IMG/VR virus record: IMGVR_UViG_3300025695_001209 | Coordinates: 8,762-72,761 of that record | Reading direction: 5' to 3' (one strand) | Source: a virus | DNA length: 64,000 bases | Part shown: piece by piece, positions 50,451 to 64,000 of the stretch | Layout of the letters: each line of letters starts with the position of its first letter | How positions within the stretch are numbered: the stretch's first letter is position 1 | Translations under genes and position numbers: made by a program | The notes under the pieces: generated by a model | Seen by the model: only the letters and a program-made list of their open reading frames with translations | The model's database searches: none | Told to the model about the DNA's origin: nothing

Positions 50451-50497
50451 TCTCTTTTTTATGATAAATACTTTCTTTGTTGTATTTATAGTAAAAA

Positions 50498-51205
50498 ATG
50501 AGTATGATTAAGTCCGATATCTTTAGAAAAAAAAGTGCAGCTGAAGAGAAAGCACTTAAAATGGGATGTAAAGGTACCCACAAACACGATGGTGGGTTCA
50601 TGCCTTGTAATTCACATTCCGAATGGGAAAAAATAAGTTCAGTAAGTGAAAAAGAAGAAATTGACGAGTTAGTTGATTATGACGGGACTATGAATAACTC
50701 AAAAATCCCGATATTAGACCCTAATGTTACCCCAAAGAAAACCACAGACCAAACAGTTGCTGCTTCACGTACAAAACAAGACCCATATGCTTTAGGGTTT
50801 AGAAGGTATATTGGTGAAGAGGATATGTCTTCGGCATTTGGATGGGAAGAAACTGAAGATATGGGTTTCGATGAGACTATAGAATATTTAGAGAAACAAT
50901 TAGGTGTAGACAATGCTGAGGAAAGGGCCGAGGAAATGGGTAAGGACGATAAGTTAGAAAAGAAAAAAACACCAGGTTCTTTCACAAGAATGAGACTTCA
51001 AGAAAAGGAAAAAATGTTCACGAAAGAACAAGTAATGAAAATGAAAGAAGATTTACTTGTCGATAAAAACTCAGATAACGGAGTACAATCCACAAATAAG
51101 GAGATTTCTAAAATCATACTTAGAAATATTAAAGCACTTAAGAAATTATCCAAAAAAGAAGGTATCAGTACTCAACAACTTATAACTCTATTAAAAAATG
51201 AATAA
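50498..51205 (+). CDS. Hypothetical protein with N-terminal Cys/His micro-domain (DUF3721-like)
   Basis: AEEKALKMGCKGTHKHDGGFMPCNSH. Confidence 0.65.
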   Translation: MSMIKSDIFRKKSAAEEKALKMGCKGTHKHDGGFMPCNSHSEWEKISSVSEKEEIDELVDYDGTMNNSKIPILDPNVTPKKTTDQTVAASRTKQDPYALGFRRYIGEEDMSSAFGWEETEDMGFDETIEYLEKQLGVDNAEERAEEMGKDDKLEKKKTPGSFTRMRLQEKEKMFTKEQVMKMKEDLLVDKNSDNGVQSTNKEISKIILRNIKALKKLSKKEGISTQQLITLLKNE

Positions 51206-51653
51206 AAATCTTTACGATAGAAAAGCAAAACTACCAAAATCACTAATAAAACATTTAGAAGAATGTGGTACGTCAGTTGATGCAGATTCAAATACTGAGG
51301 GTTTTAATCGTAATAAAGAACTCAGAGAAACAGGAGTAGCATCTTACCAACAAATAAAAAGAATTAAAAATTGGTTCGACTCTTTTGGTGGTAACAAAGA
51401 AGACGCTCCGTTTATATTAAATGGTGGTGACAGAATGCAAAAATGGTGTGGTCACGTTTTAGACCATTGGAGGTCAGTAGAACAAGGAGGTAAAAAAAGA
51501 AAAGCCGATGGAGGGATGGAAAACCAATTCATTGATAACCATGAAAAAAATGGTTTAGTAGTAAACCCACATGATAAACATGAAAAGGGTATTAATAAGT
51601 TCGATACGACAATAAAAGAGAGTATCATTAAAAGATTTAAAAGATTAACATAA
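51198..51653 (+). CDS. Hypothetical protein (head-associated domain-like)
   Basis: QIKRIKNWF...LNGGDRMQKW pattern. Overlaps the upstream gene. Confidence 0.6.
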   Translation: MNKNLYDRKAKLPKSLIKHLEECGTSVDADSNTEGFNRNKELRETGVASYQQIKRIKNWFDSFGGNKEDAPFILNGGDRMQKWCGHVLDHWRSVEQGGKKRKADGGMENQFIDNHEKNGLVVNPHDKHEKGINKFDTTIKESIIKRFKRLT

Positions 51654-51654
51654 A

Positions 51655-51951
51655 ATGGCAGAACAAAACGACAGATTAGATTTTTCACAACCAAAGAATA
51701 GTTTGAGTGAAATCGCAGAAAGAGAAAGAGCAAAACTTTTCCCACGTAATGACTATTCACCTCTTTCAGACAAGTATTCGGCGGAACATCCTGATGCTTT
51801 AGCTGACGGAGACGATGAAGGTAGAGGTACAGGAGTATTTTTAGATATACATAATTTAGGTGGTGGTACAAGTACCGACATCAATGAAAGAAATGACGAT
51901 ATCAAAATTAATAAGTACAACTATAAAAACGGTTATAAAGTAGAGGACTAA
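51655..51951 (+). CDS. Hypothetical protein
   Basis: 98 aa containing HPDALADGDDEGRGTG. Tightly coupled to neighbours. Confidence 0.7.
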   Translation: MAEQNDRLDFSQPKNSLSEIAERERAKLFPRNDYSPLSDKYSAEHPDALADGDDEGRGTGVFLDIHNLGGGTSTDINERNDDIKINKYNYKNGYKVED

Positions 51952-52346
51952 TGAAACTACAGGAAACCCTAAGGTCGGTTCTTTTAGAGGTGGCGTCAAT
52001 GGATGACGTACAAAGAGCGATAAAACAAAAACAAGTGGTCACCATATTCTATGATGGTGACGAACCTGGTGGTCGTGGTTTTAGAACTATTGAACCTGTT
52101 TGTTTTGGGTTTTCAAAAGCGGGTAATAGAGTCTTACGAGGTTGGGACATGGAAGGTGCGTCTCACACCGCATTAAAAGGTGAACAACCCTTACCAGGGT
52201 GGAGATTATTTAGGTTAGATAAGATAACGACATTTAAACCTACCTTAGATAACTTTACATCTCCCAGACCCGGCTATAACTTTAATGGGGACAAGAGTAT
52301 GTCAAGAGTAATAATCAACGCACAATTTAATAACGAAAATGAATAA
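51951..52346 (+). CDS. Stand-alone WYL-domain protein
   Basis: AI...VTIFY...RTIEP...LRGW...WRLFRLDKI. No HTH domain. Confidence 0.85.
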   Translation: MKLQETLRSVLLEVASMDDVQRAIKQKQVVTIFYDGDEPGGRGFRTIEPVCFGFSKAGNRVLRGWDMEGASHTALKGEQPLPGWRLFRLDKITTFKPTLDNFTSPRPGYNFNGDKSMSRVIINAQFNNENE

Positions 52347-52935
52347 CGATTTAATGCAAAAATTAGCCATGTCTAAAAAGATTATGGATGCCACGGAAAA
52401 TATTAAACCAGGACAACAAGGTTTATCTCAGTTACCTATGTCTGAAAATATAGATGCAAAATATAACATACCACAGGATATGTTACAACAAGCACCACAA
52501 CAACCAACATCTTCACCTCAAATGTCACAACAACCTGTGACCGAAGATAAAATTCAAAATTCTAATTTACCTGATGAAATTAAGAAATTAATGATGGAAC
52601 ACCCAATACAACAACCAAATTTCGGTGGTGGTGGTGCTACATTATCTGACGATGTTATTGAAGGTGCACAAAGACTAATGGGTAGAAATAACCCACAACC
52701 TATAAATGAGACACCTAAGACTAACCCGTCAAAAACAATGACAGGTAATAATGGAGAACTTAAACAAATGATTAGAGACGTTGTTAGAGACACTGTTAGG
52801 GATGTTGTCAGAGAAGAGTTACAAAGTTCAGGGATGTTAACTGAAGGAGGTTCAAAGACAAATGAAACACTACAACTTAGAGTGGGAAAGCACGTTTTTG
52901 AGGGTAAAGTAACAAAAATCAAAAAGGTAAAATAA
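52339..52935 (+). CDS. Hypothetical Gln/Pro-rich protein
   Basis: 198 aa containing SNLPDEIKKLMMEHPI and RDVVRDTVRDVVRE repeats. Confidence 0.7.
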   Translation: MNNDLMQKLAMSKKIMDATENIKPGQQGLSQLPMSENIDAKYNIPQDMLQQAPQQPTSSPQMSQQPVTEDKIQNSNLPDEIKKLMMEHPIQQPNFGGGGATLSDDVIEGAQRLMGRNNPQPINETPKTNPSKTMTGNNGELKQMIRDVVRDTVRDVVREELQSSGMLTEGGSKTNETLQLRVGKHVFEGKVTKIKKVK

Positions 52936-52990
52936 CCAACCCCTTTTCTTATTCTTTTTTTTGTGTTATACTTTTATCAAAAGTGAAAGT

Positions 52991-54205
52991 ATGTCAAAAA
53001 TTAAAGTATTAGTATTACCTTCTGACCGTACAGGTGTAGGTAAATTTCGTTCAGTAGAACCCCATATATTCTTACAACAATCAAACCCTGAAGATTTTCA
53101 TGTGGACATTGATTATGAGCCAAGGATTAACGATTTAAACTATTGGAAACAATATGATATGGTATGTTTCCATAGGTCAATTGGTCGTGACCCTAGACAA
53201 TCCGTAGAGATTGTTAAGATGTTAAATAAATTAGGTGTTGTAACGGTCATGGATTTAGATGACTATTGGTTACCAACAAAGGACCACCCAGCACATAATA
53301 TAGTTCTTAAAAATGAAATACATCTTAGAATTATTGACAACTTAAAAGTTGCTCAATATGTTACCACAACGACTTCTTTATTCGCAACAGAGATTAAAAA
53401 ATATAATAAAAATGTTTTTATTCTACCAAACGCGATTAACCCAAAAGAACCTCAATTTAATGCTGAAACCAAACCATCTGATAAAGTTAGATTTGGTTGG
53501 TTAGGTGGTTCATCACACTTAGAAGATTTAAAGTTACTAAATGGTAGTTTTTCAAGATTGAAAGATTTAAAAGACCAATATAGTGTACATCTTTGTGGTT
53601 TCGATACGAGAGGTACTGTAACTGAAATTAATCCTAAGACTAATGAACAAAAACAACGTCCAATAAAACCACATGAAACGGTATGGGCAGAGTATGAAAA
53701 GATTTTCACTAACAACTATAACTTAGTAACACCTGAACATAAGGAATTCTTATTAAAGTATAGTCAGGAACCTTTTACGTTAGATGAAGAACCTTTCTAC
53801 AATAGAGTATGGACCGAACCTGTCACATCATATGCTAAAAACTACGCAAATTTCGATGTGTCTTTAGCACCACTTAAAAATCACATATTTAATAGGGCCA
53901 AATCACAATTAAAAGTTATCGAGGCAGGTTTTTATAAAAAAGCCATTATCGCTTCAGATATCGGACCCTATGGAATTGATTTGACACATTCACTTAAAAA
54001 TGGTAACTTTACTGACGGTAATGCTTTATTAGTGAAAGAAAGTAGAAACCATAGTGATTGGTCTAAATTCATGAAAAAATTAATTACTAACCCATCATGG
54101 GTTGAGGATTTAGGTGAGAGACTTTATGAGACGGTCTCTAAGACTTATGACTTAAATATTGTAACAGCAACAAGAGCAGAAATTTATAAAGAAATAACAC
54201 GATGA
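52991..54205 (+). CDS. Glycosyltransferase (GT-B, GT4-like)
   Basis: Start reassigned to MSKIK. DLDDYW, LPNAI, GWLGGSSH, APL...FNRAKSQLKVIEAG, IASDIGPY. Confidence 0.85.
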   Translation: MSKIKVLVLPSDRTGVGKFRSVEPHIFLQQSNPEDFHVDIDYEPRINDLNYWKQYDMVCFHRSIGRDPRQSVEIVKMLNKLGVVTVMDLDDYWLPTKDHPAHNIVLKNEIHLRIIDNLKVAQYVTTTTSLFATEIKKYNKNVFILPNAINPKEPQFNAETKPSDKVRFGWLGGSSHLEDLKLLNGSFSRLKDLKDQYSVHLCGFDTRGTVTEINPKTNEQKQRPIKPHETVWAEYEKIFTNNYNLVTPEHKEFLLKYSQEPFTLDEEPFYNRVWTEPVTSYAKNYANFDVSLAPLKNHIFNRAKSQLKVIEAGFYKKAIIASDIGPYGIDLTHSLKNGNFTDGNALLVKESRNHSDWSKFMKKLITNPSWVEDLGERLYETVSKTYDLNIVTATRAEIYKEITR

Positions 54206-54903
54206 TTAACGTACCGAAGACAAAACTATTATTTTTCGACATTGAAACTGTCGGGATTGAGGAAGATTTTAAAACCCTAAAAAAGAATAGACCCGAACTT
54301 GCAAAATTGTTTGAGTCATATAAAGGATGGATTATAAAGAGATTTCCTGAAGAGGAAGATAGTACTATTGATGAAATGTTTTATAATAAATCGGCACTGA
54401 TACCTGAGTTTGCCAAAATAATAGTTGCGTCTTTTGCGTTTCACACACCTAATGGTGATGTTCACACACAAACATTCTCATCAGATGAGGAGGTTGAGGT
54501 CTTAAACGACATTAAAGGACTACTAAATAAAGTTAGTAAAATGGACTTTTATCTATGTGGTCATAATATTAAGAACTTTGACATCCCTATGATTGGAAAG
54601 AGAATGTTAATTAACGGTATTAAACCACCATCCCTTTTACCACAATACGACACCAAACCGTGGGAAATAAAGGCAGTTGACACTATGGAGTTATGGAAAT
54701 TTGGAAATAACTATTCTATGGCATCTTTAGAACTTATGTGTGTATCGATGGGTGTGTCATCCCCAAAAGAAGGTGAGGTTACTGGTAACATTGTCCACAA
54801 AACATATTGGGAGACAGGTGGTTTAGACCCCATTGCCAAATATTGTGATGAGGATGTGGATGTCCTTGCAAAATTAATAGATAAAATATATAACTTAGTA
54901 TAA
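54202..54903 (+). CDS. DEDD 3'-5' exonuclease (PolB-exo-like)
   Basis: FDIET, GHNIKNFDIP, DTM, YCDEDV. Confidence 0.88.
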   Translation: MINVPKTKLLFFDIETVGIEEDFKTLKKNRPELAKLFESYKGWIIKRFPEEEDSTIDEMFYNKSALIPEFAKIIVASFAFHTPNGDVHTQTFSSDEEVEVLNDIKGLLNKVSKMDFYLCGHNIKNFDIPMIGKRMLINGIKPPSLLPQYDTKPWEIKAVDTMELWKFGNNYSMASLELMCVSMGVSSPKEGEVTGNIVHKTYWETGGLDPIAKYCDEDVDVLAKLIDKIYNLV

Positions 54904-55499
54904 TGGGAAGAATGAAAGATATGACAGAAGGTCTTAGAATGTTAAAAGACCTAAAAAAAGGATTAGGGGGTATGGATACGAACAACCCTCAAAAAATGCT
55001 AGACTCAATGGGTTTAGATATGGATGAACTAAATAGAACATTTATTGAAGCTTCATCACCAAAAACCACATTAAGATACTCATATAAGTCAGTAAATACT
55101 GAACCGTCATACGCATACCCCACTGACTCAGGTTTTGACCTCAGAGCCAACAAAAAGGTCACACTTGAACCACTAGAAAGATTTTTAGTACCCACAGGTC
55201 TATTTTTAGATATCCCTGATGGTTACGAAGTTCAAGTCAGGCCAAAGAGTGGATTGGCAATTAAAAAGGGATTATCGGTGGTAAATACACCAGGTACTGT
55301 AGACCAAGGATATACAGGTGAGATACAGGTCATCCTCATTAATTTAAGTAATGAAGCACACACCATCGAAATTGGAGATAAAATCGCTCAAGCGGTTCTA
55401 TGTCCCGTAATGTCAGGTAAGTTTGTGGAATTACAAAGAGTTCTTAATGTCGACGATAAAGACCGTGGAGATAATGGATTTGGCTCAACAGGAAATTAA
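54903..55499 (+). CDS. dut: Trimeric dUTPase with N-terminal extension
   Basis: SGFDL, RPKSGLA, PGTVDQGYTGEI, IAQ, RGDNGFGSTG. Confidence 0.95.
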   Translation: MGRMKDMTEGLRMLKDLKKGLGGMDTNNPQKMLDSMGLDMDELNRTFIEASSPKTTLRYSYKSVNTEPSYAYPTDSGFDLRANKKVTLEPLERFLVPTGLFLDIPDGYEVQVRPKSGLAIKKGLSVVNTPGTVDQGYTGEIQVILINLSNEAHTIEIGDKIAQAVLCPVMSGKFVELQRVLNVDDKDRGDNGFGSTGN

Positions 55500-55500
55500 T

Positions 55501-55887
55501 ATGGAAACAGTAAGTCCAACATTACCCGAAGGTATTAAAAATTACCTTATTGATATCGATGGTACAATTACCGATGATGTCCCAAATGAAGAACCAGAAA
55601 GAATGGTAAGTTGTTTACCCTATGAAGGTTCAATTGATATGATAAATGAGTGGTACGATAATGGTCATATTATCACCTTCTTCACTTCTCGCTCGGAAGA
55701 ACATAGAGAAGTCACAGAAGAGTGGTTCAAAAAACACGGATATAAGTATCATAACTTATTAATGAACAAACCTCGTGGAGGAAATTACCATTGGATTGAT
55801 AACCATATTGTAAGGGCTACTCGATATAACGGTAAATGGACACCACTAACAGATAAAGAAACAACAATACAAGTATTTGACGATTAA
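55501..55887 (+). CDS. Small HAD-family phosphatase
   Basis: Start reassigned to METVSP. IDIDGTI, FTSR, MNKP, IDN. Confidence 0.8.
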   Translation: METVSPTLPEGIKNYLIDIDGTITDDVPNEEPERMVSCLPYEGSIDMINEWYDNGHIITFFTSRSEEHREVTEEWFKKHGYKYHNLLMNKPRGGNYHWIDNHIVRATRYNGKWTPLTDKETTIQVFDD

Positions 55888-57275
55888 TGATTACAATAGG
55901 ATATAGTACAAAAAAGATAGACCCTAAATTTAGAGAATACATTGAGGAATCATGTGGGTTAAGAGGTGTTGAAGTGATACCTTTTGAGAACCCTGGTACT
56001 CATTCACTTACCGAAGCATATAATATCATTCTTGAGAAATCAACGAATGATATTGTTGTGCTTTGTCATGATGACATCTATTTCGAGAAAAAAAATTGGG
56101 GTAACAAAGTGTTAAAACATTTTAAAAGAAATCCCGATTATGGTATTATCGGCGCTGCGGGTACTAAATACATGCCAAAATCAGGTAGGTGGTGGGAAAT
56201 ACCCTCAGAGATGTATGGTGTTGTTAATCATGAGCACGAAGGTAAAAAATGGACGTCTAAGTACAGTGAACCAAAAGGTAATCGATTAGACCAAACGGTA
56301 CTCGTTGATGGTTTATTTATGGCGGTTAACAAACCCACTTTAAAGACTCGATTCGATGAGGACGTTAAAGGTTTTCACTTCTATGAGGTGGATTTTTGCT
56401 TTAGAAACTTTTTAGAGGGTGTGATGATTGGTGTGTTTTACGATATTAGAATTACACATAAGTCAGTTGGTATGACTAATGACCAGTGGGAATTGAATAG
56501 ACAACAATTCGTGAACACACACAAAGACAATTTACCCGTAATACTTCCTACGACTTACAATAAGAAGACGGTTAAGAAGAATGAACCATTAGTTACTTTA
56601 GCAATGCCAATCTATAACTATGCTAAGATGTTAAATCCATGTCTTAACTCAGTTTTTAATCAGGATTACACTAATTTCGAAGTGGTAATAGTTAATGATG
56701 GGTCTGATGACGAATACTGTTTACTAAAACTAAAAACATTAGAGGGTCATGAATCTATTAAAGTAATACATAAAGAAAATACTGGTGTATCTGATACACG
56801 TAACATTGCGGTAAAAGAAGGTAAGGGTGAATATATACTACCATTAGACGCCGATGATATGATTTTACCTGGTTACCTCAAAACGGGTGTTAACATTATT
56901 AGAAACAATCCAAAAATTAGCCCTGTATATTGTGATACAGTACATGCCGGTGAGATGAAAGGATTAGAAAAAAGACCTGAATGGTCACAAGAGAGACTAT
57001 TACAAGGTCCATTCATAGTTAATAGTTCAATGTACTCACGTGAAGCTTATGAATCCATTGAAGGGTACAATACTGAAATGAAAGGATGGGTTGATTATGA
57101 TTTATGGGTTCAAATGATGGACGCAGGATATGAAGGTAAGAGAATACCCAAAGGTTTATTTGTTTATTTTCATCACGAAAGTGAAGGTAAGGGTTCTGTC
57201 TCAACATCTGCAAGACAGAATATGAGTGAATTACACAAAACGGTTTTAGATAGACATAAACTTAGAAATACCTAA
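55887..57275 (+). CDS. Two-domain GT-A glycosyltransferase (GT2-like + GT2)
   Basis: N-domain LCHDD, VDGLF, FHFYEVD. C-domain PIYN, VNDGSDD, RN, LDADD, DYDLW. Confidence 0.9.
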   Translation: MITIGYSTKKIDPKFREYIEESCGLRGVEVIPFENPGTHSLTEAYNIILEKSTNDIVVLCHDDIYFEKKNWGNKVLKHFKRNPDYGIIGAAGTKYMPKSGRWWEIPSEMYGVVNHEHEGKKWTSKYSEPKGNRLDQTVLVDGLFMAVNKPTLKTRFDEDVKGFHFYEVDFCFRNFLEGVMIGVFYDIRITHKSVGMTNDQWELNRQQFVNTHKDNLPVILPTTYNKKTVKKNEPLVTLAMPIYNYAKMLNPCLNSVFNQDYTNFEVVIVNDGSDDEYCLLKLKTLEGHESIKVIHKENTGVSDTRNIAVKEGKGEYILPLDADDMILPGYLKTGVNIIRNNPKISPVYCDTVHAGEMKGLEKRPEWSQERLLQGPFIVNSSMYSREAYESIEGYNTEMKGWVDYDLWVQMMDAGYEGKRIPKGLFVYFHHESEGKGSVSTSARQNMSELHKTVLDRHKLRNT

Positions 57276-57276
57276 C

Positions 57277-57882
57277 ATGTTGAAAGAAAAGAGTATAATA
57301 ATAATTGGGTCTTCAGATGTAATGTTAGAGAATAAATTAGGTGATAAAATTAATAGTTTCGATGTTGTCGTTAGATTTAATAGGGCACCCACATCTAATT
57401 ATGAAGATTATGTTGGGTCTAAAACCAACATTAGGTTTGTTAATTCTCACGTAGTAAAGAACACACCTAAACAAAATGAAGACTTAGATTTTTTACCATC
57501 AATTAAAAATCAAGTCATATGTAGTGATTTTAATATAAATGATAATGATTTTTATAAAGTTTTCGATAAAAGTTGTACATTTAAACAAGTTAATAGGTTT
57601 GATAATTTTAAAAAATTTAAAATTAATATTATTAATAAATTAAATATCGATTTAAAAATGAAAACACGAGAACCATCCGTTGGGTTAAGTGCTATATGTT
57701 ATTACATAAATAAGGGGTATAAACCCACAATTTATGGATTTCACCTGCACGATGAAAATAAAAATGTTTCCCCCCATTATTGGAAAAAGAAGTTGTCTGT
57801 TGGTAATTGTCATAACTTTTCCTACGAGAGAAAACTAATAAAAGAACTAATAAAATTAAATTACTTAAAATTATTAAAATGA
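57277..57882 (+). CDS. GT29 sialyltransferase-like glycosyltransferase
   Basis: Sialylmotif L (IIGSS...LGDKINSFDVVVRFNRAP...VGSKT), S (PSVG...YGF), III (HYW), VS (HNFSYE). Confidence 0.85.
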   Translation: MLKEKSIIIIGSSDVMLENKLGDKINSFDVVVRFNRAPTSNYEDYVGSKTNIRFVNSHVVKNTPKQNEDLDFLPSIKNQVICSDFNINDNDFYKVFDKSCTFKQVNRFDNFKKFKINIINKLNIDLKMKTREPSVGLSAICYYINKGYKPTIYGFHLHDENKNVSPHYWKKKLSVGNCHNFSYERKLIKELIKLNYLKLLK

Positions 57883-58172
57883 AGATATTTGTGGATATTG
57901 ATGAAACAATTTGCTATTATAAAGACAATAGAGATTATAACCTAGCATTACCAATAGTGGATAATATAAAAAAAATTAATAAACTATATGATGAAGGTCA
58001 CCACATTAAGTATTGGACCGCTAGAGGTTCGGTTATAAAAAAAGATTGGTTTGATATCACTAAAAATCAACTTGATACGTGGGGGTGTAAATATCATGAA
58101 TTAAGTGTTGGTCAGAAACCCGCATATGATTTACTAATATGTGATAAAACAAAAAGAATAGAAGAAATATGA
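57879..58172 (+). CDS. Small HAD-family phosphatase
   Basis: VDIDETI, WTARG, KP, CDK. Confidence 0.8.
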   Translation: MKIFVDIDETICYYKDNRDYNLALPIVDNIKKINKLYDEGHHIKYWTARGSVIKKDWFDITKNQLDTWGCKYHELSVGQKPAYDLLICDKTKRIEEI

Positions 58173-59077
58173 TAAGATATAAAAATCCGGTTTACCCTAT
58201 CCCACCATCTTTTGATGATGATGAAAATTTAGAGTTAGACTCCACAATTAATTATTTAAACTATATTAAAACGAACGGTGGTAAAATTGTAATGACAACT
58301 GCTGGTACTTCACAGTATAATTTACTTTCAACCGAAGAAATAAGGTCATTAAATTTATGTGTAATTAATAATTTTCAGGGTGAAAAAATATTAGGACTTC
58401 CACCTCTTAGTCTTAAACACATCAAAGAAGAAATTGAGTTAATGAATACTATATGTGATTCAGAGGACCGTAATGAGATTTCGTTATTGATATTATTTCC
58501 TGAAAGATATTATGATGATGAACAGATTTGTGAATACTTTGAAGAAATTTGCAGTATAAGTAAATTCGACGTTTTAGTCCACGGAAACCTCCTAAGAAAA
58601 GGTATGGGAGGTGTGTATGAGTACAGTAAACCACTGTTAGAAAAACTTAGTAATATAGACGGTTTTATTGGTATGAAGGAAGAGGCTTCAAATCTAATGC
58701 ATTCGACGACTAATTTACCAAAAGAAAATTTTGAGGTTATAGTAGCAGGTGGTAGTATGAAAAGGTTTTGGGGGTTATATCCTCACGGTGCAACAACATA
58801 CTTAACAGGTGTAGGTTCTTTTTTCCCTAAATTAGAGGAGTCATTTTTCTTAAATTATAAGAACCATAACATAAATGAATGTATAACAATTATTAATGAA
58901 ATTGAAACCCCTTTATTTGAGACTTTTATGACATCAGGGTGGCATCTATCCATGAGAACTTCATTGAAACATTTAGGTTTTATTAAGAACGATAGAAAAC
59001 CATTTAAACAACCTACAAATGAAACTAAAGAAAATATTATAAACACACTTAATAAAATTAAAAAATATGAAGAATAA
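58169..59077 (+). CDS. DHDPS / N-acetylneuraminate-lyase family aldolase (divergent)
   Basis: PSFDDDENL, AGTSQY..LS.EE, Schiff-base lysine in IGMKE. Confidence 0.75.
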   Translation: MIRYKNPVYPIPPSFDDDENLELDSTINYLNYIKTNGGKIVMTTAGTSQYNLLSTEEIRSLNLCVINNFQGEKILGLPPLSLKHIKEEIELMNTICDSEDRNEISLLILFPERYYDDEQICEYFEEICSISKFDVLVHGNLLRKGMGGVYEYSKPLLEKLSNIDGFIGMKEEASNLMHSTTNLPKENFEVIVAGGSMKRFWGLYPHGATTYLTGVGSFFPKLEESFFLNYKNHNINECITIINEIETPLFETFMTSGWHLSMRTSLKHLGFIKNDRKPFKQPTNETKENIINTLNKIKKYEE

Positions 59078-59828
59078 TAAAACATACATCATAGGACCGT
59101 GTAGTCTTGAAAACTATGAGTTATCATACGAGGTACTATCCAAAGTATATCCAATTTTAAAAGATAAGGACTTTTATTTTAAAGGCTCATTCGATAAGGC
59201 TAATAGAAGTTCAATCACTGGTAAAAGAGGTCCAGGACTAGAGGAAGGGATTGAAATATTTAAAAAGTTAAAACAAGACTTTCCTAACTTAAAAGTGACT
59301 ACTGATGTACACGAAGTTGGACAGGTTGAAAAATTATCAGGTGTAGTTGACGTGATTCAAATACCCGCGTTTTTATGTAGACAAACAGATTTATTAGTTG
59401 AGTGTGCTAAGTTCTTTGATATTGTAAACATAAAAAAGGGACAATGGATGAACCCACAAAATATGGTTAAAGGGATTGATAAAATAAAAGAAACTAACCC
59501 TAACGCTCAAGTTTGGATGACTGAAAGAGGTAGTGCATTTGGGTATTCACAGTTCATCGTTGACTTTTCAAATGTGGACTACCTTAAAGAACATTTTGAT
59601 AAGGTTATCTTTGATGTTACTCACTCAGCTCAATTACCTAAACCAAATGGTAGAATGGGTGGTAATCCCACACTAGCAGCGAGATATTTTAAAACTGTAG
59701 ACATTTTCAACTATGATGGAGTATTTGCAGAAGCACACCCTAATCCTCCATTATCATATTCGGATGCAGATTCAGTACTACCGATAAATGAAATGGTAGA
59801 ACTACTAAAAAAAGATATTAATGTATAG
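59067..59828 (+). CDS. kdsA: Kdo-8-phosphate synthase (metal-dependent type)
   Basis: GPC, FDKANRSS, TDVHE, QIPAFLCRQTDLL, KKGQ, ERG, DVTHS, EAHP, SDA. Confidence 0.93.
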   Translation: MKNNKTYIIGPCSLENYELSYEVLSKVYPILKDKDFYFKGSFDKANRSSITGKRGPGLEEGIEIFKKLKQDFPNLKVTTDVHEVGQVEKLSGVVDVIQIPAFLCRQTDLLVECAKFFDIVNIKKGQWMNPQNMVKGIDKIKETNPNAQVWMTERGSAFGYSQFIVDFSNVDYLKEHFDKVIFDVTHSAQLPKPNGRMGGNPTLAARYFKTVDIFNYDGVFAEAHPNPPLSYSDADSVLPINEMVELLKKDINV

Positions 59829-60453
59829 TATAAAAAATATATGGTCATCTACTAATCATGGCTGGAGACACATCACTAAAAGTATGGACCAATCAAAGAA
59901 ACAAAGAATAATTAAAAGGGTTAATAAAAATCTTTTAGATAATTCATTGTATGATAATGTAGAGACCGTATTGGATTGGGGTTGTGGAGGTGGACTATTA
60001 TCTAAAGTGCTATTAGATAAAGGTTTTAATGTTTGTGTAGTGGACCTTGTTGAACATAGTATAGAATCCGCTTTAGATTATGCCGTTGGTATATCTTACA
60101 CTCAATTAGTTGATGAAGACATAGAAAAGTTCAAATATCTTGGACCCAAACCTGATGTTATATTCTCCCATGCAGTTATACAACATTTTCCTAATTATGA
60201 TTACTTCACTAAAGTATTAAAAATATGGACTGAAGACATTAAACCAAATTATATATCTCTTCAGGTTAAGTTAGGTGAGAGCACGAAATCGGCAGAAAAT
60301 TATAAAAAAGATTTTCTAAATGGACTACTCTTTAAGGAAGTCGACTTAATAAAAGACTTTAAGGATAAAAACTACGAATTAATTAGTAGTGAATCAGAAT
60401 ACTCATTAAGTAATATTAAAATGGGTTATTATAATTTTAAAAAATTAGTATAA
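59821..60453 (+). CDS. Class I SAM-dependent methyltransferase
   Basis: VLDWGCGGG, VIQHFP. Confidence 0.88.
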   Translation: MYSIKNIWSSTNHGWRHITKSMDQSKKQRIIKRVNKNLLDNSLYDNVETVLDWGCGGGLLSKVLLDKGFNVCVVDLVEHSIESALDYAVGISYTQLVDEDIEKFKYLGPKPDVIFSHAVIQHFPNYDYFTKVLKIWTEDIKPNYISLQVKLGESTKSAENYKKDFLNGLLFKEVDLIKDFKDKNYELISSESEYSLSNIKMGYYNFKKLV

Positions 60454-60454
60454 A

Positions 60455-61366
60455 ATGTTTAAGAAACGAAGAGCAAGATATGTTATTGAAAAATTAAAGG
60501 ATAAAAAATATCCTAAAAAACCAAAAAAAGATATTCAAATATCTGATATTACTAATGGATATAAAACTACGAAAATACTAAATAAAGAAACAAAAATAAC
60601 AACCATTGGTTCGTGTTTTGCTGAAGAGCTGAGATTGTGGTTAAATCAGAATAAATATAATATTTCAAACCCGATGTGGGGTCAGGTATATAATATAAAA
60701 AATATAAAACAAATATTTAAATTTTCATTAGAACCTGATACGTGGAATCCAAAAGAGTCCGTGTGGGATTTTGATGGAGATATTAGACATCCATATATAA
60801 AAGGACCTCAATTAGAACCATATAAGTTAGGTAATAAAAATAACTACATTCGTAACATGAATGATTTGCATGATAGTTTTTCTAAAGTTTTAAAAGAAAT
60901 TAATGTAATAATTATCACATTAGGTCAAACAGAGTTTTGGGGTAATAAAGATGATAAATGTGCCTTTTACGCTGCGCCATGGATTAATACCAAAGAGGGT
61001 GAAAAAAATCATAAATTTTTTAATTTATCCGTAGAAGAAGTTAAAGAAGAACTTAGAGATAGTATTAAAATTTTGAAAAAACATAATCCTAATATTAAAA
61101 TCATAATTTCAGTCTCACCTGTCCCATTAGTGGCCTCAGGACAAGAAAAATTAAGTGGATTCATTTTAGCCAATAAAGCAAAATCTTCCCAACACATCGC
61201 CACTCTAGAAGTAATAGATGAATTTAAAAATGTACAATATATGCCGTCATATGAAATAGTTAATAGTGATTTAATAGGTAGTTATGAAAATGACGGTAGA
61301 CACATTAAACGTACTAAAGTTAAATCAATTATGGATACCTTTGAAAAATTATTTTGTTATGAGTAA
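60455..61366 (+). CDS. GSCFA-domain protein (SGNH-like)
   Basis: IGSCFA, ITLG, SVSPVPL, KS, YMPSYE, DGRH. Confidence 0.9.
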   Translation: MFKKRRARYVIEKLKDKKYPKKPKKDIQISDITNGYKTTKILNKETKITTIGSCFAEELRLWLNQNKYNISNPMWGQVYNIKNIKQIFKFSLEPDTWNPKESVWDFDGDIRHPYIKGPQLEPYKLGNKNNYIRNMNDLHDSFSKVLKEINVIIITLGQTEFWGNKDDKCAFYAAPWINTKEGEKNHKFFNLSVEEVKEELRDSIKILKKHNPNIKIIISVSPVPLVASGQEKLSGFILANKAKSSQHIATLEVIDEFKNVQYMPSYEIVNSDLIGSYENDGRHIKRTKVKSIMDTFEKLFCYE

Positions 61367-61934
61367 AAAAATACATATCGGATTCCATAAAGCGGGCTCT
61401 ACATTTTTGCAACAAATTGTTTTTCCTACGCTTCCTAATTATAAAGGTAGATATTATGCAGGTAGTAAAGATAAACATACTGATTTATATATTGGAGAAA
61501 CCGTAAACAATGGTTGCGAAAACATATTAAAATATTATAGTAAATTTGATAACCATTTTATATCTAATGAAATTTTTACAAAACTTAGACGAGAAAAACT
61601 TTTAGAACTTTTAAAAAAATATAATTATGATAATGTTTTAGTTGTTGAACGTAATTTAGATGATTTAATTAAAAGTAGACAACGTCATAAATCACAAGAT
61701 TTCTTTCTTCAAAAAAAAATAAATAATAGCAATATTGATGAAGAAGTGTCTAATCACTATTCAACGGAAAAATTGTCTGAAAATATTGTAAATTTAACTA
61801 TCATAAATTTTGAAAAGTTTTTTAGTGGAGATAAAAAAGAAATAAAAAAGTTATCAGAATTTTTAGAATATGATGTCGAAGATATTGTATTATCCAATTT
61901 ACATAAAAAAATAAACGCAAAAAGAAAAAAATAA
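61359..61934 (+). CDS. Sulfotransferase-like protein
   Basis: Start reassigned to MSKKIH. PAPS-binding loop HIGFHKAGSTFLQ, ISNE, R....IKS. Confidence 0.75.
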   Translation: MSKKIHIGFHKAGSTFLQQIVFPTLPNYKGRYYAGSKDKHTDLYIGETVNNGCENILKYYSKFDNHFISNEIFTKLRREKLLELLKKYNYDNVLVVERNLDDLIKSRQRHKSQDFFLQKKINNSNIDEEVSNHYSTEKLSENIVNLTIINFEKFFSGDKKEIKKLSEFLEYDVEDIVLSNLHKKINAKRKK

Positions 61935-61936
61935 AA

Positions 61937-62629
61937 ATGAAAAGATTATGTATTATACCCGCTAGAGGAGGGAGTAAAAGATTACCAGGTAAAAATATTA
62001 AACCTCTAAATGGTAAACCATTAGTTTTTTATACTATAGACGCAGTACTAAAATCTAATATGTTTGATAAAGTAATATTTACATCTGATGATGATACAAT
62101 ACTTGATACTGTATCTAATAATTACTCATCAACAGTTTTAGAGGTAATTAAAAGACCTTTAGAATTAGCTACGGACACATCTAAAGTAATTGATACTGTT
62201 ATGTATTTTTTAGATGATGACTATGACCAAACATGGTTAACTTTACCTACATCACCTATGAAAATATCTGAAGATTTTGTTAAGTCTTCAAAACTACTAA
62301 AAGAAGATGACGATTCAGTGCTTTCATACACAGAAATGGAGTTCCCCCCAACATTAGGTTTGGTAGTGAAAAACAATAACATATTAGAAGATTATGACCA
62401 AACCAATCCATGGCAAAATGGTAATAGTCGTAGTCAAGACCATCCAACCATATATAGACCTAACGGTGCAATATATGGTTCTTGGACAAAAAAATTAAAA
62501 GAAAATAAAAATTATTATATAGGTCAAACTAAGGGATATTTTATGTCAAGAAAAAGGTCTGTTGATATTGATACTCAGTTTGAATTTGATTTAGCGGAAT
62601 TTATGTTACAAACAAATCATTTATCATGA
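61937..62629 (+). CDS. neuA: CMP-ulosonic acid synthetase (acylneuraminate cytidylyltransferase, NeuA-like)
   Basis: IIPARGGSKRLPGKNIK, RP.ELA.D, PTSP, NGAIY, SVDIDT..EF. Confidence 0.9.
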   Translation: MKRLCIIPARGGSKRLPGKNIKPLNGKPLVFYTIDAVLKSNMFDKVIFTSDDDTILDTVSNNYSSTVLEVIKRPLELATDTSKVIDTVMYFLDDDYDQTWLTLPTSPMKISEDFVKSSKLLKEDDDSVLSYTEMEFPPTLGLVVKNNNILEDYDQTNPWQNGNSRSQDHPTIYRPNGAIYGSWTKKLKENKNYYIGQTKGYFMSRKRSVDIDTQFEFDLAEFMLQTNHLS

Positions 62630-63444
62630 AAAAAGTAGTAGGGATTATAGGTAATGGGTTCGTTGGTGAGTCACAAGCGTTCGCCTTCTCACCAACTAAT
62701 GAAATAAGAATTTATGATGTAGACCCTCTAAAGTCTACACATACAAAAGAAGAGTCTCACCAATCAGACTTCATATTCGTTTGTGTACCAACGCCGATGA
62801 ATATAGACGGAAAACAAGACCTATCATATGTTGAAAAGGTATTTGAGGAATCTATTGAGGGACCCATATATATTATCAAGTCAACGGTATTACCTGGTAC
62901 TACAGAACAATTAATTCAAAAGTATCCACACTTAAATATAGTGTTCTCACCTGAGTTTTTAACTGAGAGAACAGCTAAGTTAGATATGTTAACACAGGCA
63001 AGAGTTATATTTGGTGGTGACAGAGAATTAACTAATAAAGTTGAGGAACTTTTCAGTGGTAGGTTCATGAATAGACATTTCATTCATACCGACTCTAAAA
63101 CCGCTGAGTTTATCAAATATATGAATAACACATACTTCGCCACTAAAGTGTCAATTATGAACGAATATTACCGTTTAGCTCAGTTAGTCGGTGTAAATTG
63201 GGAAGACGCCCTTTATGGTTTTACCTCTGATGGTAGAGTCGGTGACTCACACCTTCACGTACCTGGCCCTGACGGTAAAGTTGGGTTTGGTGGAACTTGT
63301 TTCCCAAAAGATATCAATGCACTTATGAGTATGGCAAATGAAGTGGGTGTTAATATGAATGTATTGGAAGCCGCTTGGAAAACAAACTTAGAGGTTAGAC
63401 CTGAACAAGACTGGTCTAAACTAAAAGGTCGTGCAATATCGTAA
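62626..63444 (+). CDS. UDP-glucose/nucleotide-sugar 6-dehydrogenase (short form)
   Basis: GNGFVG, CVPTP, KSTV.PG, PEFL, AEFIKY, GFGGTCFPKD. Lacks the C-terminal domain. Confidence 0.88.
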   Translation: MKKVVGIIGNGFVGESQAFAFSPTNEIRIYDVDPLKSTHTKEESHQSDFIFVCVPTPMNIDGKQDLSYVEKVFEESIEGPIYIIKSTVLPGTTEQLIQKYPHLNIVFSPEFLTERTAKLDMLTQARVIFGGDRELTNKVEELFSGRFMNRHFIHTDSKTAEFIKYMNNTYFATKVSIMNEYYRLAQLVGVNWEDALYGFTSDGRVGDSHLHVPGPDGKVGFGGTCFPKDINALMSMANEVGVNMNVLEAAWKTNLEVRPEQDWSKLKGRAIS

Positions 63445-63535
63445 CAACACAAAGGGTTACTTTCATTATTTTATTACTAATTTATATCTTAGTTTAGTGT
63501 ATTAAACACTACTTAAAATTATTTTAAAAAAATTA

Positions 63536-64000
63536 ATGGCAACAAAAGGAAAAAAAGTAGATAACACCTCTAAAATGTCACGTAAAGAAATTATTCGTGA
63601 TATTATTGGTAAGACACCAAGAAAGAAATTCTTATCTGAAAATCAAAAGGAATATTATCAAACTCTGTGTGATAGTGAAATCACTATTTGTACAGGTCCT
63701 GCAGGTGTTGGTAAATCGTATGTCGCTATGAGTGCTGCGGTTCAATTATTATTGGATGAAAATAACTCATATGAAAAAATCATCATCGTTAGACCGGCAG
63801 TAGAAGCTGAAGAAAAATTAGGGGCATTACCTGGTAACTTAGAAGAAAAATTAGACCCTTATATCTTTCCGTCTTATTACTTACTAAATAAAATTGTAGG
63901 TAAGAGTGCCAGAGAGAAACTAAAAGAACATGACGTGATTGAAGTATTTGCGCTAGCATATATGAGGGGGATGAATATTGATAATTCAATCCTAATTTTT
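63536..64000 (+). CDS. phoH: PhoH-family ATPase, partial (runs off the window end)
   Basis: Not in the ORF track. MATKGKK...NQKEY...GPAGVGKS...IVRPAVE...LGALPG...EKLDPY...AYMRG. Confidence 0.92.
   Translation, partial: MATKGKKVDNTSKMSRKEIIRDIIGKTPRKKFLSENQKEYYQTLCDSEITICTGPAGVGKSYVAMSAAVQLLLDENNSYEKIIIVRPAVEAEEKLGALPGNLEEKLDPYIFPSYYLLNKIVGKSAREKLKEHDVIEVFALAYMRGMNIDNSILIF

Follow-up and report, generated by a model that had tools for sequence, protein, structure and literature searches.

We describe a phage-encoded cassette in which a Kdo-8-phosphate synthase (KdsA), a NeuA-type CMP-sugar activator and a GT29 glycosyltransferase are brought together, a hybrid that recurs across many uncultured phages and for which we found no description in phages in the literature. 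Our preferred reading, to which we assign a probability of roughly 0.6, is that the cassette makes CMP-Kdo or a close derivative from host arabinose-5-phosphate and that the GT29 enzyme transfers the sugar. We infer all substrates and products of the cassette from observed families, folds, motifs, conserved synteny and phage context. The observation of an earlier note on this DNA is confirmed, while its interpretation (an exchangeable ulosonic acid module built around a eukaryote-type sialyltransferase) is partly supported.

Cassette layout and phage context

The window (the whole analysed stretch, 64,000 nucleotides of IMG/VR record IMGVR_UViG_3300025695_001209) carries, between positions 57277 and 62629, eight plus-strand ORFs in a row, each junction of which overlaps or leaves 1-2 nt (-11 to +2 nt; Table 1), in agreement with the tight coupling noticed before. 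The reported AT-richness was borne out by a sliding GC check: the 5.35-kb cassette is the window's GC minimum (0.286, against a window mean of 0.339, sd 0.013), and none of the 587 same-size windows is as low. The GT2 and UGDH genes that were said to flank it are present as well.

Table 1. Genes of the cassette and its flanks, by position in the window
Feature	Position	Strand	Matches or remarks
Second mini-HAD paralogue	55423..55887	+	Upstream edge of glyco-island
Two-domain GT2 glycosyltransferase, 462 aa	55887..57275	+	PF13712, PF00535
Minimal soluble GT29, 201 aa	57277..57882	+	PF00777
Mini-HAD phosphatase, AfhF family, 97 aa	57879..58172	+	Motifs, fold, profile
Divergent DHDPS/NAL-superfamily enzyme, 302 aa	58169..59077	+	PF00701
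Kdo-8-phosphate synthase KdsA, metal-dependent type, 253 aa	59067..59828	+	NF003543, PF00793
SAM-dependent methyltransferase, 210 aa	59821..60453	+	PF13489, PF08241, PF13649
GSCFA-family protein, 303 aa	60455..61366	+	PF08885
Sulfotransferase-like protein, 191 aa	61359..61934	+	PF00685 just under cut-off
NeuA-type CMP-ulosonate synthetase, 230 aa	61937..62629	+	PF02348
Short UGDH-like dehydrogenase, 272 aa	62626..63444	+	PF03721, PF00984; downstream edge of island

As had been proposed, the contig comes from a phage, of which it covers a part (CheckV completeness 21%): it encodes baseplate wedge, RNR, DnaB, UvsX-like and PhoH proteins, and we ascribe it to a marine jumbo phage. The cassette lies inside a co-directional block of phage genes, with dUTPase on one side and PhoH on the other, and six of its eight proteins belong to no PHROG family. 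Near-identical contigs occur in the runs of three other studies. Those of one independent assembly (X2) cover 57463-58362, 58421-59665, 59636-61589 and 62117-63562 with 0-1 differences and span six of the nine junctions from the GT2 to the UGDH-like gene; the GT2/GT29 junction is spanned only by one 497-base contig of another run (X3, 10 differences), and the sulfotransferase/cytidylyltransferase junction is bridged by none of the other-study contigs among the matches listed.

Enzymes of the proposed core pathway

All eight family assignments of the earlier note were reproduced (the sulfotransferase marginally, see below), and the five profiles it had put forward as a check (PF00777, PF00793, PF02348, PF00701, PF08885) all match. 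The GT29 protein scores 81.6 bits against PF00777 (cut-off 23) and, as claimed, conserves all four sialylmotifs (L, S, III as HYW and VS as H..E; alignment A1). Its profile matches pig ST3Gal-I (2wnb, E 9.7e-30) far better than the GT42 enzyme CstII (6e-5), and the AF2 model (pLDDT 92.8) has a sialyltransferase fold with ST6GalNAc2, ST8SiaIII and ST3Gal-I as best Foldseek matches. A search for a hydrophobic 19-mer found none (maximum Kyte-Doolittle value 0.63), and the L-motif cysteine of the eukaryotic enzymes is absent. We regard the protein as a soluble relative of animal sialyltransferases and predict it to be a CMP-ulosonate transferase.

The label 'eukaryote-type' did not survive, as GT29 is not restricted to eukaryotes: bacterial members were reported in 2018 (PMC5811610), relatives are encoded in 101 IMG/VR stretches, and 129 of the 150 best relatives in a 1.84-billion-protein library are at most 250 aa long. 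Bacterial relatives occur in Pelagibacteraceae, Opitutales, Stieleria, Defluviicoccus and a Bacteroidetes MAG; at locus L082, in the single-cell genome of a member of the Pelagibacteraceae, the GT29 gene adjoins NeuA/NeuB/NeuC-type genes.

KdsA is recognised by PF00793 (143.9 bits) and by NF003543 above the NCBIfam equivalog cut-off (264 against 242 bits), though it stays under the stricter TIGR01362 cut-off (253.7 against 314). It aligns with Kdo8PS of A. aeolicus (1fwn, E 1.1e-57) and retains the active-site segments GPC, KANRSS, IPAFLCRQTDL and THS. KdsA-like matches are rare in GenBank phages (10 of 50,697 records), and no arabinose-5-phosphate isomerase was found in the window.

The cytidylyltransferase (PF02348, 86 bits) aligns over its full length (residues 3-224) with NeuA of N. 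meningitidis (1eyr, E 3.2e-28), whereas KdsB models match residues 1-67 only; the PseF model scores 132.5 bits, under its cut-off of 205.7. The known substrates of NeuA-type enzymes are nine-carbon sugars. The starred tree clade that holds this activator has 10 rows (eight KdsA-only loci, one with both synthases and one NeuB-only), and the activators linked to the DHDPS-like gene have a clade-specific motif set. The activator thus appears to be co-inherited with the KdsA and DHDPS-like genes, and this NeuA-type clade may activate an eight-carbon sugar.

No Pfam model matches the 97-aa ORF; only fold and profile show it to be a HAD, and the HAD motifs (DxDxT, T..R, K, D) are conserved. Its family profile hits the 9iqw chain at E 2.8e-20, the ORF matches phrog_1238 at 5e-22, and the predicted fold (pLDDT 90.6) is closest to 9iqw, the phosphatase AfhF of phage HY126 (Foldseek 5.7e-7, 37% identity), followed by 1xpj and the T4 Pnkp phosphatase, with KdsC/YrbI weaker. 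Hence the previous call of a HAD phosphatase stands, but not a KdsC-like one: we place the protein in the AfhF/1xpj/EcbF-BcbF mini-HAD family. AfhF, a D-arabinose-1,5-diphosphate phosphatase, strips the terminal 5-phosphate off arabinofuranose-1,5-bisphosphate (PMC13326640), and since C8 of Kdo-8-phosphate derives from that end of the same pentose, we counted this activity towards the predicted role of the mini-HAD as a Kdo-8-phosphate (terminal sugar phosphate) phosphatase. The upstream paralogue (154 aa, with an N-terminal extension; phrog_1238 7e-17; HAD-type matches PF03767 and PF24694) is 32% identical to it (alignment A4) and has a GC content (0.351) close to that of the remaining genome.

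The DHDPS-like enzyme matches PF00701 at 28.1 bits (cut-off 22.1), and its profile (A2) finds DapA structures (E 2.6e-23) ahead of acylneuraminate lyase (4n4p, 5e-15). Within the family, which is plentiful in metagenomes (228 matches), the Schiff-base lysine K170 is invariant, as is H138 at the DapA tyrosine position, and the position equivalent to 'GDD' in DapA is basic. The best NCBIfam model is 5-dehydro-4-deoxyglucarate dehydratase, above DapA, both far below cut-off. The matches are all remote, so homology gives no readable reaction; in 12 of 12 loci the gene immediately precedes kdsA, and its step may be tied to the synthase. To our knowledge, no Kdo pathway has a place for such an enzyme, and the final sugar may therefore not be Kdo itself.

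Predicted tailoring genes and flanks

The methyltransferase (PF13489, 38.6 bits; also PF08241 and PF13649) has homologues at the same position in two related loci (L008 and L018; 47-48% identical). The GSCFA protein covers the full PF08885 profile (147.9 bits), and the motif can be read in its translation; no homologue was found in the 79 IMG/VR loci compared below, and run X5 holds a ~96% relative spanning 60366-61830. Pfam assigns the family to its SGNH hydrolase clan; the protein is a candidate O-acyl esterase or transferase. The sulfotransferase assignment is marginal: the protein reaches 21.2-21.6 bits against PF00685, just short of the cut-off of 22, and has no sequence match in the PDB, and a 27% identical protein (L004:16713-17588) scores 45.9 bits. 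Its longest ORF begins at 61284; the internal ATG at 61359, with an 8-nt overlap with the GSCFA gene, is the more likely start.

The GT2 enzyme (PF13712 at residues 28-210, PF00535 at 238-345) probably makes the acceptor glycan; L008 has a 43% identical homologue in the corresponding place. The UGDH-like protein (phrog_9148; gene GC 0.376) matches PF03721 and PF00984 only; profile searches detected no C-terminal domain, and the TIGR03026 match covers profile positions 67-295 of 413.

Comparison of GT29 loci

We compared 80 GT29 loci (79 from IMG/VR plus the window), which are not independent (74 distinct GT29 sequences in 89 ORFs). Within 10 kb of GT29, KdsA, NeuB or a CMP-synthetase was found in 44 of them (CMP-synthetase in 38, NeuB in 31, KdsA in 13), a mini-HAD in 19 and the DHDPS-like gene in 18; the other 36 had no ulosonate gene within that distance, many of them being truncated or placed in the opposite half of the GT29 tree. 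The conserved core (mini-HAD, DHDPS-like, KdsA, NeuA-type cytidylyltransferase) stands beside GT29 in another 12 IMG/VR loci, which include near-duplicates; this bears out the proposed hybrid of Kdo-type synthase with sialic-type activator and transferase.

The cassette is modular, as the earlier note had suspected. In the syntenic relative L008 the core occupies the same site, flanked by dUTPase and PhoH, but GSCFA, sulfotransferase and UGDH are missing, and in another lineage NeuB replaces KdsA between loci with 89% identical GT29 and 86% identical activators (L004 and L028). There the DHDPS-like gene is swapped along with the synthase (21% identity); either specificity is loose or two routes converge. 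KdsA and NeuB labels are likewise intermixed in the GT29 tree. Related islands carry more than 10 glycosyltransferases as well as C- and O-methyltransferases, sulfotransferases and aminotransferases.

Proposed pathway and alternatives

We reason that the phage-encoded module would be co-transcribed and its product an eight-carbon 3-deoxy-ulosonic acid, Kdo or a close derivative. KdsA would join arabinose-5-phosphate, assumed to come from the host, with PEP to give Kdo-8-phosphate, from which the mini-HAD would take off the terminal phosphate; the DHDPS/NAL-like Schiff-base enzyme may work on the 2-keto-3-deoxy acid, either in the synthase step or in one adjacent to it. The NeuA-type, rather than a KdsB-type, cytidylyltransferase would form the CMP-sugar, and the soluble GT29, acting in the cytoplasm, would attach it to an acceptor from neighbouring GT2 enzymes. 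This acceptor may belong to the phage (a structural protein or glycan) or be a lipid-linked glycan of the host envelope. Methyltransferase, GSCFA (SGNH-type) and sulfotransferase-like proteins would add variable, lineage-specific tailoring.

A possible, if tentative, alternative is that the product is not Kdo but another keto-deoxy acid, either a new derivative of Kdo or different in some other way. On this view the DHDPS/NAL-like enzyme, together with the mini-HAD, would remodel the skeleton ahead of CMP activation, be it through C4 epimerisation (retro-aldol, then aldol), dehydration or a condensation of pyruvate with a dephosphorylated aldose, and activator and GT29 would be specialised for the resulting sugar. 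The DHDPS-like gene is conserved as strongly as its neighbour KdsA, is naturally fused to the mini-HAD in locus L022, and is exchanged with the synthase while GT29 and activator stay 86-89% identical; the departures from DapA around an invariant lysine, the preference for the dehydratase model and the motif set of the linked activators point the same way. Against this, known pathways offer no template, and matches as remote as 28 bits to PF00701 leave the reaction unreadable. Another reading, which we consider unlikely, splits the cassette into two jobs: KdsA and HAD would raise host Kdo for LPS, and the NeuA-type enzyme and GT29 would use a nine-carbon nonulosonic acid of the host. The NeuA-like activator, the 31 loci with NeuB rather than KdsA, the Pelagibacteraceae locus and cyanophage S-SCSM2R, which has KdsA and a separate KdsB-annotated gene without GT29, would fit it; NeuB, however, is absent from the window, the activator clade co-inherits with KdsA and the DHDPS-like gene, translational overlaps join the genes into one unit, and entry of Kdo into LPS would still require KdsB, which the phage does not supply.

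That the cassette belongs to the host, as part of a chimeric assembly or a bacterial island, and has no phage function is very improbable: the low GC, the proteins without PHROG family and the marine bacteria with GT29 and NulO genes could be so explained, but not easily the co-directional block and insertion site shared with L008, the other-study contigs across most junctions, or the relatives in 101 IMG/VR stretches. Scarcely credible, finally, is that the sugar goes onto phage DNA as a hypermodification instead of onto protein or polysaccharide; AfhF, the closest characterised mini-HAD relative, acts in DNA arabinosylation and a dUTPase/dCTP-deaminase-like gene lies just upstream, but the 12 kb examined held no hydroxymethylase, thymidylate-synthase homologue or DNA glycosyltransferase, and the enzyme repertoire of related islands is typical of complex glycans.

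Relation to known systems

The canonical bacterial Kdo pathway runs through KdsD, KdsA, KdsC and KdsB to GT30 (WaaA) or GT99 (WbbB-type) transferases. The cassette we read as a Kdo-type pathway shares its synthase, phosphatase, CMP activation and transfer, with an orthologous KdsA, but has an AfhF-type mini-HAD for KdsC, a NeuA-type enzyme for KdsB and GT29 as transferase, adds the DHDPS-like enzyme and is without KdsD. Bacterial GT29 sialyltransferase-like proteins, mostly of marine proteobacteria, place the same CAZy family outside eukaryotes (Petit et al., PMC5811610); the main text of that paper, which names GT30/GT73/GT99, treats their function as putative and describes no association of their genes with KdsA by neighbourhood, and the words 'phage' and 'virus' do not occur in it. 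Cyanophage S-SCSM2R (PQ898602, PMC12801897) is also marine and has a 42% identical Kdo-8-phosphate synthase adjoining a cytidylyltransferase, but the latter is annotated KdsB, the window's NeuA-type enzyme has no tblastn match there, and no GT29, DHDPS-like gene or mini-HAD was found in the 16.7 kb around kdsA. AfhF shares family and fold with the mini-HAD and terminally dephosphorylates an arabinose-5-phosphate-derived sugar, but it feeds UDP-arabinose for DNA modification (PMC13326640), whereas the mini-HAD sits in an ulosonate operon and is once fused to a DHDPS-like enzyme.

GT29 is also borne by eukaryotic viruses (coccolithoviruses and chelonid herpesvirus 5 among the matches listed); here, in contrast, the host is bacterial, the enzyme minimal and cytoplasmic, and the donor pathway its own. 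The sialyltransferase of myxoma virus is another case, and such viral genes resemble host Golgi enzymes. The plant GT29 RCKT1/MGP2 is much longer, membrane-anchored and fed by a KdsB-type CMP-Kdo synthetase, whereas the phage enzyme, soluble and reduced to a core of 201 aa, lacks the L-motif cysteine and has a NeuA-type activator. The plant enzyme is the closest precedent, overlooked by the earlier note: a GT29 with sialylmotifs in a Kdo-making rather than sialic-acid system, treated as a Golgi glycosyltransferase and proposed as an inverting CMP-beta-Kdo:RG-II Kdo transferase (PMC11288761). We propose that it and the phage GT29 are both putative Kdo transferases.

Genomic setting and support for the assembly

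The window spans bases 8762-72761 of an IMG/VR virus record that is 72.8 kb long and, according to CheckV, 21% complete; its genes for a baseplate wedge, ribonucleotide reductase, DnaB-like helicase, UvsX-like recombinase, exonuclease, dUTPase and PhoH point to a tailed phage, probably a jumbo phage. All the main ORFs past the strand switch near 50.5 kb lie on the + strand, and the eight that form the cassette (GT29, a 97-aa mini-HAD, a DHDPS-like enzyme, KdsA, a methyltransferase, GSCFA, a sulfotransferase-like protein and a NeuA-type cytidylyltransferase, hereafter the activator) are separated by gaps of 1-2 nt or overlap by 4-11 nt. HMM searches reproduced the family calls that the earlier note had made (e.g., those for PF00777, PF02348 and PF08885). 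Its observation that the cassette is AT-richer than its surroundings was borne out too: the GC fraction of 0.286 was not matched by any of 587 same-size sliding windows (mean 0.339, sd 0.013), while the genes on either side (GT2, second HAD and UGDH-like; 0.35-0.38) are at the level of the remaining genome. As a general sign of transfer the GC dip was ruled out, for among eight relatives the GC of the module lay below that of its flanks in some and above it in others.

The cassette stretch was also present in contigs from sequencing runs of three other studies; one of these runs yielded nearly identical pieces (table), and another (X5) a ~96% relative spanning the methyltransferase, GSCFA and sulfotransferase genes. 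Since matching contigs come from independent runs, an assembly chimera is unlikely. None of the 24 runs listed as holding the stretch was an RNA run, and in window 50000-64000 both promoter-like (76 vs 65.9 +/- 8.5 expected) and terminator-like sites (7 vs 6.3 expected) stayed at chance level. DNA-level searches of GenBank phages with the cassette and with 20 kb of the window gave two short 77% matches or nothing, and 6 of the 8 cassette proteins had no PHROG family.

Elsewhere in the window, four very large - strand ORFs may encode structural or fibre proteins and would thus be candidate targets of glycosylation. The DUF3721 domain in one product, known chiefly from marine picocyanobacteria and the phages that infect them, points faintly to such hosts. 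It competes with the SAR11-like pointer provided by L082 (a Pelagibacteraceae single-cell genome contig carrying a GT29 relative), which, like the low GC, is no more than a hint.

Coordinates of features in the window and in related loci (L-numbers denote loci with GT29 relatives)
Feature	Locus	Position	Strand	Length	Remarks
Very large ORF	window	2313-7472	-	1719 aa	
Very large ORF	window	18857-25330	-	2157 aa	
Very large ORF	window	25637-30247	-	1536 aa	
Very large ORF	window	34862-38038	-	1058 aa	
Divergent switch	window	50450-50498			- strand genes to 50450, + strand from 50498; GC skew changes sign
DUF3721 product	window	50498-51205	+		PF12518, E 3e-10
Second mini-HAD	window	55423-55887	+	154 aa	longer paralogue, upstream edge of island
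GT2	window	55887-57275	+		
Cassette	window	57277-62629	+	5.35 kb	eight ORFs
Sulfotransferase-like, longest ORF	window	from 61284	+		83-nt overlap with GSCFA (61284-61366)
Sulfotransferase-like, likelier start	window	from 61359	+		internal ATG, 8-nt overlap with GSCFA
UGDH-like	window	62626-63444	+	272 aa	
Run X2 contig pieces	window	57463-58362, 58421-59665, 59636-61589, 62117-63562			0-1 differences
PhyH-type dioxygenase	L002	10483-11190			
Related module	L004	9953-18280			
Related module	L028	9953-16123			
NeuB-isomerase fusion	L004	10582-12435		617 aa	xylose-isomerase-like TIM barrel
Sulfotransferase-like relative	L004	16713-17588			27% identical
NeuB-isomerase fusion	L037	10612-12114		500 aa	cupin/lyxose-isomerase-like domain
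Mini-HAD-DHDPS-like fusion	L022	11555-12751		398 aa	directly 5' of KdsA
Short UGDH-like	L018	3153-4124			

A soluble GT29 core and its relatives

The cassette transferase (201 aa) matched PF00777 at 81.6 bits (cut-off 23; profile positions 58-269 of 272), and the family alignment retains the sialylmotif columns L (G11, R33-F34-N35, G47, T50), S (G136, G154-F155), III (H167-Y168) and VS (H179, E184), which line up motif for motif with pig ST3Gal-I. The family profile recovered ST3Gal-I at E 9.7e-30, as against 6e-5 for the GT42 enzyme CstII. Foldseek searches with the AlphaFold model (pLDDT 92.8) ranked human and pig ST6GalNAc2, ST8SiaIII, ST3Gal-I and ST6Gal1 highest (E 3e-9 to 3e-6, TMq 0.57-0.72), with CstII weaker (5e-5), and the protein is predicted from this model to have the GT-A variant sialyltransferase fold.

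Eukaryotic Golgi sialyltransferases have a type II membrane anchor, a stem and a conserved disulfide between motifs L and S. The cassette protein starts only six residues ahead of motif L, contains no hydrophobic 19-mer, and has Ile in the position of the L-motif Cys of ST3Gal-I. A Golgi-type sialyltransferase (a subset of GT29) is therefore ruled out by the lack of both anchor and L-motif Cys, and the cassette GT29 is a soluble catalytic core.

Bacterial GT29s have been known since 2018, chiefly from marine alpha-proteobacteria (PMC5811610, in the excerpts available). Our scan of one genome per species, with a closer GT29 alignment (A3) as query, placed GT29 in six loci: a Pelagibacteraceae single-cell genome (with the order GT29, cytidylyltransferase, NeuB/SAF, UDP-GlcNAc 2-epimerase), two Opitutales MAGs, Stieleria, Defluviicoccus and a Bacteroidetes MAG. 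Such loci leave 'eukaryote-type', as the earlier note had described this soluble protein, as merely a historical label. Literature searches on phage GT29 and on Kdo transferases of phages listed GT29s of eukaryotic viruses, and none of the papers listed dealt with a GT29 from a bacteriophage. The parts of the module all belong to known families; their combination and spread in phages we did not find in print.

Relatives were numerous and mostly short. Of 284 candidates in a metagenome protein collection, 29 were homologues of GT29 at E <= 0.001, all between 138 and 350 aa in length, and an exhaustive protein library gave 10,968 matches at E <= 0.001 (220 at <= 1e-30), 129 of the best 150 having at most 250 aa. 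A scan of IMG/VR with the single GT29 protein returned nothing, and an alignment-based scan gave 101 stretches encoding relatives; a family long held to be the eukaryotic sialyltransferases is hence found in bacteriophages at scale, compared with 2 matches in 50,697 GenBank phage records (10 for KdsA, 0 for the DHDPS-like enzyme). Two or three GT29 genes were seen in eight IMG/VR loci (L022, L031, L032, L036, L048, L050, L060, L075), and four GT29-like places in LR756508, a 484-kb uncultured phage in GenBank. The huge-phage record LR756500 was rejected as a carrier of the module, as it matched only KdsA and the N-terminal part of the cytidylyltransferase, the other module genes being absent.

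Gene neighbourhoods were compared in 80 loci (79 from the best 80 of the 101 IMG/VR stretches, plus the window), in which ORFs were called, clustered and named with Pfam; the loci are not all independent, as the 89 GT29 ORFs comprise 74 distinct sequences and several loci nearly duplicate one another. At distances of up to 10 kb from GT29 we found a CMP-synthetase in 38/80 loci, NeuB in 31, a mini-HAD in 19, a DHDPS-like gene in 18 and KdsA in 13, with KdsA, NeuB and CMP-synthetase all absent from 36. Transfer from a CMP-ulosonic acid is predicted from this context, namely the 38 loci with CMP-synthetase. A PhyH-type Fe/2-oxoglutarate dioxygenase (in L002 and 17 other loci; none in the window) often neighbours KdsA and CMP-synthetase and, by analogy to Kdo hydroxylase, may hydroxylate the ulosonate.

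Enzymes of the donor pathway

KdsA exceeded the cut-off of the NF003543 equivalog (264 vs 242 bits) and fell below that of the stricter TIGR01362 (253.7 vs 314). It aligned with the Kdo8PS of A. aeolicus at E 1.1e-57 and retains the GPC, KANRSS, IPAFLCRQTDL and THS segments, in which we take the KANRS loop to bind arabinose-5-P and the Cys and His to be metal ligands. The activator matched PF02348 at 86 bits and NeuA (1eyr) over its full length (residues 3-224, E 3.2e-28), and scored 132.5 bits against the PseF equivalog (cut-off 205.7). On sequence grounds it belongs to the NeuA/PseF-type family without being orthologous to any named enzyme. KdsB equivalog models cover only its residues 1-68 (28-45 bits vs cut-offs of 155-281) and KdsB chains of the PDB only residues 1-88; an identity as KdsB, the CMP-Kdo synthetase, is ruled out by this confinement to the N-terminal loop.

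The 97-aa ORF has no matching Pfam model, and it keeps the HAD motifs (D6-x-D8-x-T10, T47/R49, K80, D84/D89). Its confident model is a HAD-like Rossmannoid with fold matches to AfhF (9iqw), 1xpj, the T4 Pnkp phosphatase, HisB-N and KdsC, the best match by both structure and profile being AfhF of phage HY126. A KdsC-like reading of the HAD gave way to this one: YrbI/KdsC structures rank behind (E 0.016-0.06), no KdsC model of NCBIfam matched at E <= 0.01, and the sole match was TIGR01689 (EcbF-BcbF, 17 bits). AfhF is a Mg-dependent phosphatase that strips the terminal phosphate from arabinofuranose-1,5-bisphosphate (PMC13326640, in the excerpts available); a literature search on PDB entry 9iqw found nothing. 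Phage members of the mini-HAD family are very numerous (one ESM Atlas cluster has 2421 members), and 'phosphoheptose isomerase', the automatic name of its phage clusters there, is at odds with the HAD fold.

The DHDPS-like enzyme passed PF00701 weakly (28.1 bits, cut-off 22.1), and its family profile matched DapA structures at E 2.6e-23; ESM Atlas returned DHDPS-family clusters only, and 228 homologues of the enzyme were counted in metagenomes. K170 is invariant and aligns with the 'GIK' (Schiff-base) lysine of DapA. His138 is invariant where DapA has a Tyr that we take to be catalytic, and basic residues replace the 'GDD' segment. A DapA or NanA orthologue is ruled out by this Tyr-to-His138 exchange and by TIGR00674 (21.4 bits vs 206). 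In all 12 loci with both genes, DHDPS-like lies directly 5' of KdsA, and in L022 it is fused to the mini-HAD. A complex prediction for the two separate proteins scored 0.00, which neither supports nor opposes binding.

Regarding the tailoring genes, the methyltransferase gave a clear family match by HMM search and GSCFA covered PF08885 completely (147.9 bits, positions 1-237 of 237). The sulfotransferase call stood in part: the protein's own PF00685 score (21.2-21.6 bits) is just under the cut-off of 22, a PDB sequence search gave no relevant match and PAPS-loop-like segments were seen by eye only, while the relative in L004 clears the model at 45.9 bits. Its likelier start resembles the other operon junctions. 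At the downstream edge, the UGDH-like protein has NAD-binding and central domains, with no match to a C-terminal UDP-binding domain. Such short forms, seen also in L018, L053, L055, L057 and L082, constitute a cluster of their own that is conserved (6 loci, median 277 aa), often adjoin GT29 (Pelagibacteraceae contig included), and may act on a substrate other than a UDP-sugar.

Exchange within the module

The claim that the module is exchangeable was upheld by two sets of relatives. L008 has upstream genes and PhoH in common with the window and carries its island at the same site (dUTPase, GT2, GT29, HAD, DHDPS-like, KdsA, methyltransferase, cytidylyltransferase, PhoH), without GSCFA, sulfotransferase and UGDH. 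KdsA and the activator are 76-78% identical between the two and GT29 only 31%; judged by these identities, the transferase is the fast-changing part of the module.

In the related phages L004 and L028 the GT29s (89%), activators (86%) and neighbouring methyltransferases (88-89%) are nearly the same. The synthase block of L028 consists of DHDPS-like and KdsA, that of L004 of a NeuB-SAF-xylose-isomerase-like fusion, a DHDPS-like protein sharing just 21% identity with its counterpart and an APH-type kinase. The DHDPS-like gene thus follows the synthase and is not coupled to the activator or transferase, and one activator-transferase pair would appear to serve both KdsA and NeuB routes. The make-up of the activator clade to which the window belongs (10 rows: 8 KdsA-only loci, 1 with both synthases, 1 NeuB-only) agrees with this movement under a common activator and transferase. 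Activators tied to DHDPS-like genes have common motifs missing from other NeuB-linked activators, and KdsA and NeuB labels are mixed in the GT29 tree (60 rows; 29 left out for length or duplication). The NeuB-isomerase fusions of L004 and L037 hint that the aldose substrate is supplied on-enzyme.

Proposed pathway and alternatives

The logic of synthase, phosphatase, activator and transferase put forward in the earlier note holds by families, folds, motifs, operon structure and kept synteny. We favour (with a probability of roughly 0.6) a Kdo route in which KdsA would condense host arabinose-5-P and PEP to Kdo-8-P, the AfhF-type mini-HAD would remove its terminal phosphate, the NeuA-type enzyme would make the CMP-sugar, and the soluble GT29 would pass this on, within the cytoplasm, to a glycan begun by the adjacent GT2 enzymes. 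In chemical terms the terminal phosphate of Kdo-8-P is the 5-phosphate of its arabinose moiety, the very target of AfhF. The methyltransferase, GSCFA and sulfotransferase-like proteins would afterwards tailor the sugar or the glycan.

That the final sugar is something other than plain Kdo we regard as unlikely. Such a sugar could come from the DHDPS-like enzyme, which might epimerise, break the C3-C4 bond and join it again, carry out a dehydration, or take the acid while it is still phosphorylated; the enzyme keeps the Schiff-base lysine and travels with the synthase. As to the acceptor, related islands are rich in glycosyltransferases and in enzymes that modify sugars. The conserved neighbour gene clusters scanned against Pfam (on partial contigs, where absence counts for little) include no flippase, polymerase or transporter, a faint pointer to phage components being decorated in the cytoplasm. 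More speculative, and in our view improbable, is the joint proposition that ~200-aa soluble, disulfide-free GT29s constitute an extensive family in phages and marine bacteria whose members transfer Kdo/Kdn-type sugars in the cytoplasm, that the DHDPS-like/mini-HAD pair turns Kdo-8-P into an undescribed sugar, methylated, sulfated or acylated and placed on the virion instead of the host, and that prokaryotic and phage mini-GT29s, not Golgi enzymes, are ancestral to the sialyltransferase fold.

The Kdo route that we favour would be a non-canonical one, with its AfhF-type phosphatase, NeuA-type activator and extra DHDPS-like step, and the KdsA-for-NeuB swap, which leaves activator and transferase almost as they were, offers a ready comparison for donor specificity. 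Acidic, possibly methylated or sulfated sugars would thereby join the means by which marine jumbo phages may alter virions or host surfaces. The neighbourhood ties of these genes to defined donor pathways give a direct way to test the role of prokaryotic GT29s and their use of CMP-Kdo. For the plant enzyme RCKT1 this use is still a question since the protein resists expression (PMC11288761, in the excerpts available); a 201-aa soluble GT29 with its own donor operon should express easily, and provides a minimal model of the fold and possibly a tool enzyme. RCKT1/MGP2, as presented in those excerpts, is in turn the precedent for a GT29 proposed to work with Kdo.
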